NCBI GenBank assembly: GCA_900553205.1
Contig: USCK01000001.1
Span: forward strand, 1 to 36,676
Reading direction: 5' to 3'
Length of the DNA: 36,676 nucleotides
From: an uncultured bacterium
GTDB lineage: Bacteria; Cyanobacteriota; Vampirovibrionia; Gastranaerophilales; Gastranaerophilaceae
Shown one piece after another: positions 24,785 to 29,296 of this stretch. The notes beneath the pieces were generated by a model. The model saw nothing but the letters and a program-made list of their open reading frames with translations, made no database searches and was not told the DNA's origin. How positions within the stretch are numbered: the first letter of the stretch is position 1; every line of letters begins with the position of its first letter. Position numbers and translations under genes: made by a program.

Positions 24785-27073
24785 ATGGGTATGGCAGCAT
24801 CACAGGCTAGGTATCTAGCACTGACCGCTCGTAAAAGTAATGTTGAGTACGAAGGCCAACAAATTAACCAATCCAGAACGGCATTGGCAAACCAGACGGC
24901 TAACCTATTCAACCAAATGATGGGAATGAGCGTCCCAACACCGCCTTCTGTTGCAGATTACACCACTGTACAATATTCATTCAGTGATGGTTCTAACACA
25001 GAAGCAATTTCAAACTACTATCAATTGGGTAATTCAGACTCTGATTACAACTATGTTGTAACAACTTACCACAACGAAAAAGTTTATCAGGGTTCTCGTA
25101 AGAAAATGAACGACCCACAGGTTCAAGCGACCTACACAAATCGCTACACTTACAATCCGTCTGATGCAGATAACAATATCAGTCGTACTGTAACAAAAGC
25201 TGAACTTAATGCTGATGGTTCTTACTTTATTCAAGAAACTAACGGTACAACTAAAACTTACCGTCCGGTTACTGAAAAAGAAGAAGATCAAGTAAAAGCT
25301 ATTAACCACGGTTTGGGTCAAAACGAAAAGAATCCTACTGTAAATCTTGCTAGTGATGATTTACGTAAGAACTTTAACATCGTTACAAACCCTACATCTG
25401 ATCAGTTGAAAGAATTAGGTGAGCTATTTGGTTATAGATCATCTAACTTCAACAAATCTACTGCAACTCAAAATGTTACTAATGCTAATATTGGTACTTA
25501 TACAGCTTGTACAGAGGCAGATGCAGACCAAATCAGAACAATTTTTGGTTCTGATGCAACACCTACATCAGTAAAAAGTGAGACAAAAAATTGGAATAAA
25601 ACTGATGCAACTGGTTATAACGCTTGTACAGATACAGATCTTGCAGCTATTCAACAGTTATACGGTGCAGATGTTACTGATGCTACAGCTTATATGAAAA
25701 AAGCTGATGGCACATATATGACAAAAGAAGCGTATGATGGTTTAGATACAACAACTAAGTCTGATGTCGAAGTAAGATCTCTTGTTCAAAATTACTACAA
25801 GAGCGGTGATTACTACATTTCAGCAGCTGATAAAGCTACTGTTGAAGGTGGTGGTACTGCTACTGCACAAACAGTAACTCGCAAAACAATGGACATTGAT
25901 GCAGGTAACCAAAGTTCATTTATTGACATTGATACAAACGATGCTGATATGGTTGCAAGAGCAATGGCAGCAATCGGTTGTACTCAAGAAGAACTTGGCA
26001 ACTATATGTTGTTCAACACAACAGACGTAAACTTCCAAGGTTTTGTAAAACGAGAAGATGTTGAAAACATGAACAAGGATAGTCAATTCTATACAGTTGA
26101 CAACTTCTCTAATCAATACTATTGGAATGGTACAGGTTATGTAACAGCTTCTGACATGGATAACAAAGTTGAAGGTGCGACATTATATGTTCCTGAAAAC
26201 AAGAAAACAGGTATTGGTATTGTTCAAGGCGGCGACCAAACTTTCTACACAGATGGTAATTCATTTGTTACAAAAGCTGATTTAGACGCTGCGTTAGCTT
26301 CTTACAATCGTTACTTAGCAACAGGTAAAAAAGAAGCTAATACAATTAATGAGATACTTGTATCTAATGATCCTGCGTTCTCTAACTATACTCAGGTTGG
26401 TAACTGCCAATTGTCAGAAATATTTGCAGCTGATTTAGAACGTGATGAAGCAATGAATACCGAAATCATGCAGATTATCAAGGATATGAAGGGTGAAAAC
26501 GGTGATAAAGTTGCAGCAGAAAACTTAGAAGCTTGTTTTGATGTTGATGCAAACGGTGACTATGTATATAAAGGTGGTATCTACAAGTTCCAAATGGGTG
26601 GTACAACATACTACACTACTAAAAAAGACTTGGATACTTCATTAGGTACATCAATCGTTGATAACAACATCGATGTTCAACAAGAAAAACTTAGATACTA
26701 CAACGGTGTATATGTAGATACAAAAGTTGAAGATACTAAGAAAGCATTGTTGGAAACAGATGGCAACGGTAGATTCAAATCTATCAAGTTGGAAGATGAT
26801 AATGTTCAATACACATTGAATGTTGAGTCAAAAACCGACGAAGATGCATACAATGATGCAATGAACAGATACTACTATGAAAAAGAAGTATATGAAAAGA
26901 ATGTATCTGATATCAATGCAAAAACTGAAATTATTCAGGCACAAGACAGAACCCTTGAACTGCGTTTGGAACAGTTGAATACCGAACAATCTGCTCTACA
27001 AAACGAAATGGAAGCAGTTAAGAAGGTAGTTGACAAACACGTAGAACTTGGATTCAAGACATTCGGTGGCTAA
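24785..27073 (+). CDS. Large hypothetical protein with conserved helical termini and a repeat-rich T/N/D/Y-rich central domain
   Basis: AGGAGG (24771-24776) lies 8 nt before the ATG at 24785; the tracked ATG at 24779 is too close. The N-terminus is 'MGMAASQARYLALTARKSNVEYEGQQINQ' and the C-terminal coiled coil ends 'VELGFKTFGG'. No signal peptide and no flagellin motifs are present. Confidence 0.85.
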   Translation: MGMAASQARYLALTARKSNVEYEGQQINQSRTALANQTANLFNQMMGMSVPTPPSVADYTTVQYSFSDGSNTEAISNYYQLGNSDSDYNYVVTTYHNEKVYQGSRKKMNDPQVQATYTNRYTYNPSDADNNISRTVTKAELNADGSYFIQETNGTTKTYRPVTEKEEDQVKAINHGLGQNEKNPTVNLASDDLRKNFNIVTNPTSDQLKELGELFGYRSSNFNKSTATQNVTNANIGTYTACTEADADQIRTIFGSDATPTSVKSETKNWNKTDATGYNACTDTDLAAIQQLYGADVTDATAYMKKADGTYMTKEAYDGLDTTTKSDVEVRSLVQNYYKSGDYYISAADKATVEGGGTATAQTVTRKTMDIDAGNQSSFIDIDTNDADMVARAMAAIGCTQEELGNYMLFNTTDVNFQGFVKREDVENMNKDSQFYTVDNFSNQYYWNGTGYVTASDMDNKVEGATLYVPENKKTGIGIVQGGDQTFYTDGNSFVTKADLDAALASYNRYLATGKKEANTINEILVSNDPAFSNYTQVGNCQLSEIFAADLERDEAMNTEIMQIIKDMKGENGDKVAAENLEACFDVDANGDYVYKGGIYKFQMGGTTYYTTKKDLDTSLGTSIVDNNIDVQQEKLRYYNGVYVDTKVEDTKKALLETDGNGRFKSIKLEDDNVQYTLNVESKTDEDAYNDAMNRYYYEKEVYEKNVSDINAKTEIIQAQDRTLELRLEQLNTEQSALQNEMEAVKKVVDKHVELGFKTFGG

Positions 27074-27115
27074 TAGTTAGAAGGTTAGAGGTTAAGGTAG
27101 ATAGAAGGTTAGTAA
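27074..27115. repeat. 8-nt-periodic array immediately after the stop codon
   Basis: tagttaga aggttaga ggttaagg tagataga aggttagt aa. Confidence 0.45.
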
Positions 27116-27288
27116 AAATAAATATATTTATATACTTACCTTCTCCTCCTTACTCTCAAGAAATACCCAAAAATGCGGCTTCAATGTCGGTCACGAATTC
27201 AAAAGCTGCTTAGTCAGACCGGTTCAAAATCCAAAGAACAAGGCAGAGCAGTAGTTGACTAAATTAATAAAAAAGCTTGAGGAAAACA

Positions 27289-28132
27289 ATGGCATACAAG
27301 AATGATGGTTTACTGGTTATAGCGAATAAGTTCGGAGCAGCTTCAGCAGATGCTAAATGCATGTTGTACGAAACTTATGACAGATTGAGAGATTTAACAG
27401 TTTCTGGGTCTGCCAGCTCAGGAACAGGCTTTGAGGCTTGTGGTGGCTTCCTATACCAACTTGCCAGCCTATTCGCTCCATCCTCTTTTATGACAACATT
27501 AGGTGGAACTCAGGCATTTAATATCCCCGGCACTTCATATTGGTCACCATACTCTGGTGGTACAGGAACAGTAAACGGGGGGTACGGAGCATTCGGACTT
27601 AGTGGACTAGGGAACTATTCAGGGTTCCCTAGTGGAGCCGCTAATGTTAAGTGGGGCTTGAGAAGTGGTTCTACTACCGGAGGCGCTTCAAGTATTAATG
27701 GTTTAATTTCCGGTTTAGGTTCTTCCAGTGGAACTGTTACCGGAGGCGCATCAAGTATATGTAGCATCTGCAGCAGCTTATGGATTAGGTACTGCTAACG
27801 GATACGGAATTGGTGCATCAGGTATATTGATGCCTCTTGCAGGTTTAGTATCAGGTTGGGGTGGTATAATGACTGCTGCAGCACCATATTTAGGTGAATT
27901 CGGTTTACCTGCCATTGTTATGGGGAACTTGATGCAAGGTACTTCTTCTGCAGCGTTATCTGCGTACCAAAATGTTTCAAGTAATGTTTTATCTAATGCC
28001 GATACAATCTTGTCACAAAAAGTTGCTAATATTGAAACTGTTTGTAAAATGTTAGATACACAAGGCGAAGTTGTAAGAAAAATGTTGAAAGAACAAATGG
28101 ACGGCGACAGCAAAGCCATTCAAAACTTGTAA
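27289..28132 (+). pseudogene. Gly/Ser-rich, glycine-zipper-like hypothetical protein with an interrupted frame (frame 1 to frame 2 near 27757-27761)
   Basis: ATG at 27289 after GAGGAA. Frame 1 ends in an implausible 'CSICSSLWIRYC'. Frame 2 continues the same composition ('VASAAAYGLGTANGYGIGASGILMPLAGLVSGWGGIM'). The repeat TGGASSI-NGLISGLGSSSGTV-TGGASSI is cut at agt-ata-T-gta. Confidence 0.55.
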
Positions 28133-28153
28133 TATTATAAGTGAATTAATAAT

Positions 28154-28227
28154 GTCATTCAGAGGGCGAAGCCCGAAGAATCTCGTTAAAACCTTGCAAG
28201 AGATTTTTCGCTATCGCTCAAGATGAC
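28154..28227 (+). repeat. Compact copy of the GTCATTCAGAG...CTCAAGATGAC palindromic element
   Basis: gtcattcagagggcgaagcccgaagaatctc - loop gttaaaaccttgcaa - gagatttttcgctatcgctcaagatgac. This is an imperfect hairpin with arms of about 30 nt. Confidence 0.75.
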
Positions 28228-28305
28228 GGAAAAAGAATTATTATTCAGAATATCAAAACACAAATCATACGATAATAATTTTATCAGCAGTATAAAAAGG
28301 ATAAA

Positions 28306-28527: not shown

Positions 28528-28622
28528 TTATTAAGACATGTTACAAACATGGTCAAACATGCGCAATTATTGAAGATAACATGTTTTATAATATATGGAA
28601 GTCGTAAATTAGGTGATGTAAA

Positions 28623-28892
28623 ATGAACGAAGCAATTATGACTTCCCTAAAACGAATAAGAAACTTCATTAATTTCACAAGATCATTTTTTATTAGGAAA
28701 AATCCTTTTAAGATGTTGGTCGAGGAGATTGTGAACGGCCTGAAAGATATGTTCAGTGTTCGTCAAAAGCTTAAGATGGCTCAATACAGAGTTAATTATC
28801 ATAAGCACCAGTTGATGAAAATGGAATCATTGATTGCAGAAAACAATGAACACACATTCTTGAAAGGCAAAAACCTCAACGAAACAAGGTAA
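28623..28892 (+). CDS. Small basic coiled-coil hypothetical protein
   Basis: 89 aa, K/R-rich and helical. Its stop lies 8 nt before the next start, so the two are probably translationally linked. Confidence 0.5.
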   Translation: MNEAIMTSLKRIRNFINFTRSFFIRKNPFKMLVEEIVNGLKDMFSVRQKLKMAQYRVNYHKHQLMKMESLIAENNEHTFLKGKNLNETR

Positions 28893-28900
28893 GGTGTATC

Positions 28901-29242
28901 ATGGGTTTAATTGCAGCATCAATGAGATTACAAACTTTAATTGCGTATAAGAACCAATTAGAGATGCGTATTCAGTCAGTAACAGAAAGTATGGTAGGAC
29001 TTCAAAGTCAAGCCGATGAGTTAGTTACGATAGGTGCAGATTTAGATCCTGATAGTGATGCTCTTAAAGACTTGAAGGTTAAGAAGGAGCGACTGAACTT
29101 GATTGAAAAGAAACTGGAAATGCAACAGAAACAGTTTCAGACACAGTTAGAAGCAATTACTCAAGAAATTCAATCTTGTCAACAAATGGTACAAAATAAT
29201 ATCCAGAGTGGTATGTTCAGCTATACACTAGGTGGTAGATAA
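28901..29242 (+). CDS. Short paralogue of the 24785-27073 protein (termini only)
   Basis: 'MGLIAASMRLQTLIAYKNQLEMRIQS' aligns with 'MGMAASQARYLALTARKSNVEYEGQQ'. The C-terminus 'MVQNNIQSGMFSYTLGGR' aligns with 'VVDKHVELGFKTFGG'. Confidence 0.7.
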   Translation: MGLIAASMRLQTLIAYKNQLEMRIQSVTESMVGLQSQADELVTIGADLDPDSDALKDLKVKKERLNLIEKKLEMQQKQFQTQLEAITQEIQSCQQMVQNNIQSGMFSYTLGGR

Positions 29243-29267
29243 TAAAATATAGCAGTTAAAATTTTTT

Positions 29268-29296
29268 CAAAGCCTCAATTTATTTGAGGCTTTTTT
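29268..29296 (+). terminator. Intrinsic terminator closing the cluster
   Basis: aaagcctcaa-tttat-ttgaggcttt followed by TTT. Confidence 0.7.

Follow-up and report, generated by a model that had tools for sequence, protein, structure and literature searches.

Five conserved genes without known relatives in Gastranaerophilales, one encoding a variable protein of flagellin-like architecture

Flagellin and the other axial proteins of the bacterial flagellum (FliC, FlgK/FlgL, FliD and FlgE) keep conserved terminal helices around a variable, beta-rich insert. The first product, A, of a cluster of five genes (A-E) has the same layout. The cluster lies in a 36,676-nt stretch of DNA (positions 1 to 36,676, referred to below as the window; L-numbers such as L001 denote related loci) from Gastranaerophilales, uncultured, non-photosynthetic relatives of cyanobacteria that are widespread in the gut. 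As in axial proteins, A lacks a signal peptide, is acidic and Thr/Asn-rich with signs of high expression, and is encoded by several paralogues per genome, with alleles that are hypervariable within species. In contrast to them, A has no sequence or profile similarity, no convincing fold match and no sigma-28 promoter; a single N-terminal helix is followed at once by beta structure, and the N-terminus is conserved from Met1-Gly2. The companions B-E have no flagellar counterpart, and linkage of the cluster to flagellar genes is not the rule. Two further systems invite comparison: the type III needle, whose tip proteins stand to it as A stands to E, and the type I-secreted surface (S-layer) proteins SapA of C. 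fetus and RsaA of C. crescentus, which form acidic paralogue families devoid of signal peptides.

By every test run here A-E are five families without known relatives, and the flagellin likeness of A is one of architecture and mode of evolution, not of family membership. We tentatively favour a reading in which A would be an abundant, surface-exposed, self-assembling protein on a conserved helical stalk, leaving the cell independently of any signal peptide and possibly by way of the flagellar apparatus. An earlier note on this DNA had proposed a novel filament, appendage or secreted-substrate module that might ride on flagellar export, and this interpretation is partly supported.

Architecture and evolution of A and its short paralogue E

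The start of A (MGMAASQ...) is the one used by almost all homologues, and 8 nt separate its start codon from an AGGAGG ribosome-binding site. In an alignment of 86 homologues, residues 1 to ~125 and ~530-762 are conserved; most homologues are 530-650 aa long and match just 31-49% of the query. The AlphaFold2 model of A (predicted local distance difference test score, pLDDT, 87.4; predicted template-modelling score, pTM, 0.62) places helices at residues 2-46 and 686-760 with beta-rich domains between them; the remainder outside the long helices is globular, with pLDDT of ~90 or higher. Model and alignment together bear out the flagellin-style architecture that the earlier note had described, that is, conserved terminal helices around a variable, beta-rich domain, as in flagellar axial proteins.

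Variation within the species was followed in five near-identical strains, three of which have identical E and one of which is 77% identical to the window in A. The ratio of non-synonymous to synonymous polymorphism (pN/pS) was 0.05 for residues 1-125, 0.55 for residues 126-530 and 0.07 for residues 531-762. The pN of the middle is ~16 times that of the ends, compared with pS values of 0.22 and 0.13-0.15, respectively, and all 29 gap columns of the strain alignment fall in the middle region. The termini of A are under strong purifying selection among these strains. Patterns of this kind are familiar from the central domains of flagellins and from other surface antigens.

The composition of A is also unusual. 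The protein is acidic (isoelectric point, pI, 4.5) and rich in T, N and D; the residues T/N/S/G/D/Y/A/Q make up 60.5% of it, against 42.6 +/- 4.1% in the other window proteins (a difference of more than 4 standard deviations) and 52.5% in the hook protein. In codon usage, A ranks with the most EF-G-like genes of the window. Signal peptides are absent from all of A-E, as had been claimed: the highest Kyte-Doolittle 19-residue mean starting within the first 25 residues stays below 1.0, compared with 1.88 for OmpH.

E, whose exact window sequence is present on 112 contigs, reads as two long helices linked by a conserved DLDP-x-x-(D/P) turn. BLASTP of A against E returned a weak C-terminal match alone (E-value 0.009). 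Profile comparison with hhalign aligned E(1-41) with A(1-41) at a probability of 95% (E-value 3.6e-8) and E(54-106) with A(706-757) at 93.6% (E-value 2e-7), both in register with the chain ends; swapped-terminus controls gave 1.1% and 0.2%. The residues invariant in both proteins include Met1, Gly2, Arg9, Leu13 and, close to the C-terminus, an aromatic one. Because both termini match by profile and in register while the controls are negative, E is, as judged from sequence, a paralogue of A minus ~640 intervening residues, and the claim that the first and last genes have both termini in common holds. B was considered as a further carrier of these termini and rejected (hhalign at most 2.8% against either protein).

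The plan of E, ~110 residues with two helices by sequence and a Pro-containing turn (DLDP-x-x-P), is that of the type III needle protein SctF, and A, which consists of the two terminal segments of E with domains inserted, is laid out like type III tip and filament proteins. In contrast to this likeness, E aligned with five needle proteins, including PrgI, MxiH and YscF, at the 7-residue turn alone (hhalign 1.5%; the needle sequences were entered by hand). A needle homology, hinted at by the DPxxP turn and by a C-terminal I-Q-x-S-F, was rejected on this result, and no needle protein was found at E-value <= 10 when the E profile was run against PDB sequences.

The long helices of A raise the question of a cytoplasmic coiled-coil scaffold or cytoskeleton, which the earlier note had named as its alternative. 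Here A and E would assemble by their helices within the cell, perhaps in division or cell shape, with B as the membrane tether. Such an assembly would accord with the lack of signal peptides in A-E and of export genes in the cluster, with the conservation of both ends of A from the first residue, with an FtsZ gene that follows the cluster at ~1.7 kb in L003, and with the fact that the sole family matches are weak coiled-coil ones, e.g., PspA at E-value 8e-4. Coiled-coil cytoskeletal proteins (crescentin, cyanobacterial coiled-coil-rich proteins) likewise have long, likely pairing helices and no signal peptide. In A, however, the helices (45 + 75 of 762 residues) account for ~16% of the chain, whereas the bulk is globular, beta-rich and hypervariable, and the AlphaFold2 model has no coiled-coil rod running over most of the chain as in crescentin. 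Moreover, a middle that is hypervariable within species and carries indels, the 2-4 paralogues per genome with differing middles, and a composition farther from the other window proteins than that of the flagellar hook protein are all atypical of cytoskeletal proteins. We regard this alternative as unlikely, weakened as it is by the hypervariability of the middle, a composition like that of surface proteins and the low coiled-coil content.

Relatives and genomic distribution

Searches for known relatives of A-E in Pfam, NCBIfam, PHROGs and PADLOC yielded sub-threshold coiled-coil noise alone. The signature domains of flagellar axial proteins (Flagellin_N/C, Flg_bb_rod/Flg_bbr_C, FliD_N/C) were absent from A-E at E-value <= 1 in Pfam and NCBIfam, whereas the hook protein of the window, which served as positive control, matched TIGR03506 at 1.5e-33. 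Profiles of A, B, C, D and E reached at most 6.3% probability in hhalign against 32 E. coli flagellar proteins and B. subtilis Hag. Neither phmmer nor profile hmmsearch against all PDB sequences found anything for A, B or E. C and D had no family match in Pfam, NCBIfam, PHROGs, PADLOC or the flagellar hhalign comparison, and a literature search found no paper describing an A-E system. The statement that the cluster products belong to no known family has therefore stood up in Pfam, NCBIfam and PDB.

Searching the A model against PDB with Foldseek gave one match at E-value <= 1e-3, the giant flagellin 9au6_A (E-value 2.7e-4), at a probability of 0.16 and a TM-score of 0.07, without a domain-level match; judging from the model, it would at most reflect a gross layout in common. 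This top match, the axial-type architecture of A and the flagellar genes close by in the window, L005, L044 and L084 could be taken to mean that A is a highly diverged hook-associated protein, cap or flagellin, with B-E as junction proteins or chaperones. A canonical flagellar identity was rejected on the Pfam, NCBIfam and E. coli hhalign results, the hook protein of the same window is readily recognised, ordinary flagellin genes are already present in gut Melainabacteria (PMC3787301), and A genes have no sigma-28 promoter. We consider this reading largely refuted and very improbable. A phage origin was rejected on empty results in PHROGs, in IMG/VR, where no relative was found among viral contigs, and in BFVD, where Foldseek returned nothing for the A model at E-value <= 1e-3; a defence system was rejected because PADLOC gave no match. 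Thus, the homologies that the earlier note had named as refuting it (FlgK, FlgL, FliD, flagellin, phage fibres) were not found.

Genes for A relatives are numerous. With one genome per GTDB species, at least 579 stretches encoding them were detected, the best 80 of which all come from the Gastranaerophilales/Melainabacteria lineage, and A and B have more than 1000 homologues each. Homologues of window proteins derive from metagenome-assembled genomes (MAGs) labelled Candidatus Gastranaerophilales, Melainabacteria, Vampirovibrio or 'Cyanobacteria bacterium'. A tblastn comparison of six window proteins and EF-G with 83 loci recovered the order A-B-C-D-E in ~50 of them, across many Gastranaerophilales species, which is far beyond chance and agrees with the proposed conserved, syntenic module. 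Tandem A-A-B-C-D-E was seen in 4 loci and solitary A paralogues without B-E in ~30. Single assemblies encode 2-4 A genes (e.g., RUG11253, RUG14327, AH.11_8 and HUM_9); the HGM07924 assembly has a cluster 96% identical to that of the window, plus a second, solitary A paralogue (L014).

B is very well conserved. Among its 1105 matches, the best 120 are at least 75% identical and keep most Gly positions. A B profile run against 1.84 billion representative proteins gave 75 matches, all of them B-like or B fragments except one spurious phosphoenolpyruvate synthase, and the named ones come from Gastranaerophilales and one Vampirovibrio sp. MAG. By this search the module is confined to the class Vampirovibrionia (Melainabacteria), mainly to the order Gastranaerophilales. 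C, which the earlier note had called a weak open reading frame (ORF), is a real gene: ORF and motifs (RTFLRIMFN, VNFCNE) are kept in ~40 loci. D is highly conserved, at 62-99% identity. The module is among the most conserved lineage-specific features of Gastranaerophilales, and it carries no annotation anywhere. Its flanks vary by lineage and include genes for EF-G, NFACT, OmpH, FtsZ, ribosomal proteins, GroEL and EF-Ts. Solitary A paralogues are monocistronic, have housekeeping genes as neighbours and are preceded by the A-specific promoter-like motif or by a variant form.

Surface assembly, export and the flagellar link

In the reading that we favour, the two terminal helices of A would pair as a stalk and serve as an assembly or anchoring interface, and the variable middle would be the part that an abundant structure on the cell surface, be it a fibril, a filament or a coat, exposes to its surroundings, where phages or host immunity would drive its diversification. 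E would be a subunit consisting of the stalk alone, joining this assembly through its helices as a base, adaptor, cap or assembly regulator. B, very conserved, Gly-rich, weakly hydrophobic at ~184-202 and ending in a long helix, may be a membrane-proximal partner, and the small basic accessory proteins C and D may act as chaperones or regulators. Export would proceed without a signal peptide, with the flagellar type III apparatus as the leading candidate route and a type I system as the next. If surface-exposed, A probably ranks among the main targets of phages and host antibodies in these bacteria and would represent a new kind of self-assembling protein. A, B and E are in any case concrete candidates for proteomics, structural work and strain typing in Gastranaerophilales.

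Several observations weigh against this reading. The pN/pS of the middle is not above 1, i.e., it indicates relaxed or diversifying evolution; the codon usage of A was compared with that of a single gene (EF-G), which is a weak test; and the 86-homologue alignment contains an invariant Cys. Flagellar export substrates have disordered, poorly conserved N-termini, whereas that of A is conserved and predicted to be helical from residue 2. No secretion, ATPase or anchoring gene was found within the A-E cluster. The AlphaFold2 model of B is poor (pLDDT 39.9), with the C-terminal helix at 224-284 alone moderately confident, so that the role given to B is a guess. Flagellar neighbours of A genes are sporadic, and A genes lack a sigma-28 promoter such as that of fliK in the window (see below).

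The export route is where a coat or adhesin secreted by a type I system has to be weighed. Its exporter would be encoded elsewhere, the C-terminus of A would be the secretion signal and the N-terminus the anchor. Like SapA and RsaA, A is acidic, T/N/D-rich and without signal peptide, and its paralogue families combine conserved terminal regions with a variable remainder; one solitary A paralogue lies 200 nt downstream of an ATP-binding cassette (ABC) exporter gene. That gene, however, sits among lipopolysaccharide genes and looks like MsbA, and no ABC or membrane-fusion genes were found in or next to the cluster in annotated contexts. A also differs from SapA and RsaA in having no RTX (GGxGxD) repeats and in the conservation of both ends instead of one, and E, which corresponds to the two termini alone, would have no obvious role in such a coat. 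We would rate this alternative as rather improbable, a little below the cytoskeletal one.

Gut Melainabacteria are a flagellated lineage (PMC3787301, PMC4451040). A 2026 bioRxiv preprint reports a complete flagellar gene set in only ~25% of gut Gastranaerophilales genomes; the others keep genes such as flhB, fliI and flgG, for which its authors suggest a possible role in secretion (10.64898/2026.04.24.720558). Flagellar genes also occur near some A genes, in ~5 lineages. In L005, where A is 96% identical to that of the window, a FliI/YscN-family ATPase gene (TIGR01026, 549 bits) runs on the same strand and stops 311 nt before A; a rod-gene operon is divergent from A in L044; and in L030, L032 and L084 fliE-fliF-fliG follow ~3.5 kb downstream, succeeded in L084 by fliH and flhA. 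The FliI/YscN gene of L005 is a stand-alone gene (6343-7689 on contig CAAFVD010000119.1 of the HGM07924 assembly), and in the window its place is taken by EF-G; close relatives thus differ by a rearrangement of the locus. Among ~60 A contexts only ~5 are flagellar and most consist of housekeeping genes, which is roughly what chance would give by our own estimate (a ~2-Mb genome with ~40 flagellar genes). Gene neighbourhood as evidence of a flagellar link was dropped for this reason, striking as the L005 and L044 arrangements are. A scan for sigma-28 motifs (TAAA-N14-16-[GC]CGA[TA]A or CCGATA, within 260 nt upstream of A) found none before any of the 83 A genes, whereas fliK of the window has a good one; sigma-28 control of A was rejected on this result. 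The ordinary flagellins that gut Melainabacteria already have (PMC3787301) likewise count against a flagellar link of the cluster.

Taken as a specific proposal, the idea of a new extracellular filament or secretion module that uses the flagellar type III apparatus and has A, E and B as its subunits or substrates is improbable in our estimation. If true, it would explain why ~3/4 of gut Gastranaerophilales genomes reportedly keep flhB, fliI and flgG although their flagellar gene set is incomplete, and it would mean that a lineage widespread in the human gut uses a re-purposed flagellar export machine to make a new appendage that varies antigenically. A-E would then be a fresh example of the re-use of that machine.

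The helices of E and the Gly-rich segment of B could also be seen as parts of a secreted toxin or pore-forming set, by comparison with multi-component alpha-helical pore-forming toxins or type III translocators. The hydrophobic segment of B would enter the target membrane, with A and E as helical partners. In B a Gly-rich stretch of weak hydrophobicity does precede a 60-residue helix, and the two long helices and Pro-containing turn of E recall needle or translocator partners. On the other hand, the hydrophobicity of the B segment (Kyte-Doolittle 1.48) is under the usual transmembrane threshold of 1.6, homology to needle proteins is lacking in the comparison given above, and an entire order of gut commensals has the cluster as part of its core, in syntenic form, whereas toxin loci are patchily distributed. 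We find a toxin hardly credible.

Layout of the locus, upstream DNA and neighbouring genes

The GC content of the window is ~33%. Genes A-E are bounded by the EF-G gene and a terminator-like hairpin (Table 1). The positions and common strand of the five ORFs were correctly given in the earlier note, the intergenic region before A is real, being the gap to the EF-G gene, and a hairpin with a 10-bp stem containing 4 G-C pairs, followed by TTTTGATGTAT, is present where a terminator had been placed. The span given for B is right; a single intact ORF it is not, as its 844 nt are not a multiple of 3 and fall into two frames. The fliK and flgE-family genes claimed downstream, together with a sigma-28-type promoter, were both located.

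Table 1 Coordinates of the cluster, its upstream DNA and neighbouring features in the window
Feature	Positions	Strand	Remarks
EF-G gene	21712-23799	-	divergent from cluster, 985-bp gap to A
Promoter-like TTGCAA-16-TATAAT	23963-23990	+
Terminator-like hairpin	24043-24076	+	strong, 15 pairs
Segment missing from L086 and L088	24327-24570		~240 bp
Conserved 5' region of A	24573-24784	+	contains the next three features
Hairpin and T-run	24574-24593
Promoter-like motif TTGACT-N13-CATTAAA	24675-24680 and 24694-24700
Ribosome-binding site AGGAGG	24771-24776
Gene A	24785-27073	+	762 aa
Gene B	27289-28132	+	Gly/Ser/Ala-rich; 285 aa in relatives; broken here into frames 27289-27798 and 27728-28132
Gene C	28306-28527	+	73 aa (72-73 aa across relatives), basic, pI 9.1
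Gene D	28623-28892	+	89 aa, very basic, pI 10.3
Gene E	28901-29242	+	113 aa, paralogue of A
Terminator-like hairpin and T-run	29269-29293, to 29303 with T-run	+	closes cluster
Genes for 209-aa basic protein and OmpH/Skp	29385-30492		next after cluster
Degenerate A-type motif	34191-34216		~70 nt upstream of fliK sigma-28 promoter
Sigma-28/SigD-type promoter	TAAA 34266-34269, TCCGATAT 34285-34292		~25 nt upstream of fliK start
fliK-like and FlgE/F/G-family genes	34318-36416		5 kb downstream of cluster; fliK in frames 34318-35016 and 34899-35561

In the gap between EF-G and A, conservation is restricted to ~210 nt next to A, which are 75-81% identical in other species and hold the hairpin, promoter-like motif and ribosome-binding site listed in Table 1. 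The A-gene motif has the form TTGACTTT-N11-14-CATTAAA and lies 60-90 nt before the ATG; the looser pattern TTGAC...[CT]ATTA[AT]A, searched on both strands of 1.25 Mb of loci, had 84 matches, 55 of them immediately before A genes. The motif, intact or degenerate, is also seen ahead of the fliE operon in L084, the rod-gene operon in L044 and fliK in the window, where it reads TTGTCTGTC-A9-TCATTAAA. It was considered as a flagellar-regulon signal and dropped, as it is found before dnaJ, ilvD and the genes for a TPR protein and an EF-hand protein as well; no inference is drawn from it for the same reason. The solitary A paralogues of L014-L016 and L022-L025 lack TTGACTTT and have two direct repeats AAAGTATAAAA instead, 11-12 bp apart and ~90-100 nt before the ATG, which may be the site of a different regulator.

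Of the intergenic DNA ahead of A, a segment of ~240 bp is missing from the near-identical contigs L086 and L088. Its ends (24299-24350 and 24522-24557) are similar to a short sequence that follows the flgE-like gene (L086 17608-17700, which corresponds to ~36587-36676 of the window). The segment has the look of a small repeat or mobile element that inserted in the window strain. Closer to EF-G, the promoter-like sequence and the strong terminator-like hairpin that follows it could define a short transcript of ~80-110 nt; Rfam gave no match for these elements, the cluster or the 5' region.

The sigma-28-type promoter of fliK, TAAA-N15-TCCGATAT, lies directly ahead of the hook-length and hook genes, which therefore appear FliA-dependent in the window. 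Two frame-breaking differences occur within its 36 kb. In B the frame is shifted by the loss of 14 nt that L001 and L003 have between 27758 and 27759, and an intact 285-aa B is found in four near-identical contigs (L005, L086-L088); in the fliK-like gene one A is lost in an AAA run near 34873, and L086-L088 encode an intact 414-aa FliK. Since near-identical contigs have both genes intact, the breaks may be strain-specific lesions (pseudogenes) or errors of assembly and do not belong to the system itself.

The 209-aa basic protein encoded next to the cluster has no family match. Its gene and that of OmpH/Skp occur as a pair beside the cluster or just past EF-G in loci of several related species (L001, L007, L008, L011, L012 and L036), and the protein seems to belong with OmpH, not with the A-E module. 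Elsewhere, a gene for a SigB/SigF/SigG-family (group 3) sigma factor is divergent from a solitary A paralogue in two lineages, at L079 (1099-1938) and L082 (389-1228), and both sigma factor genes score higher with SigF than with FliA models.

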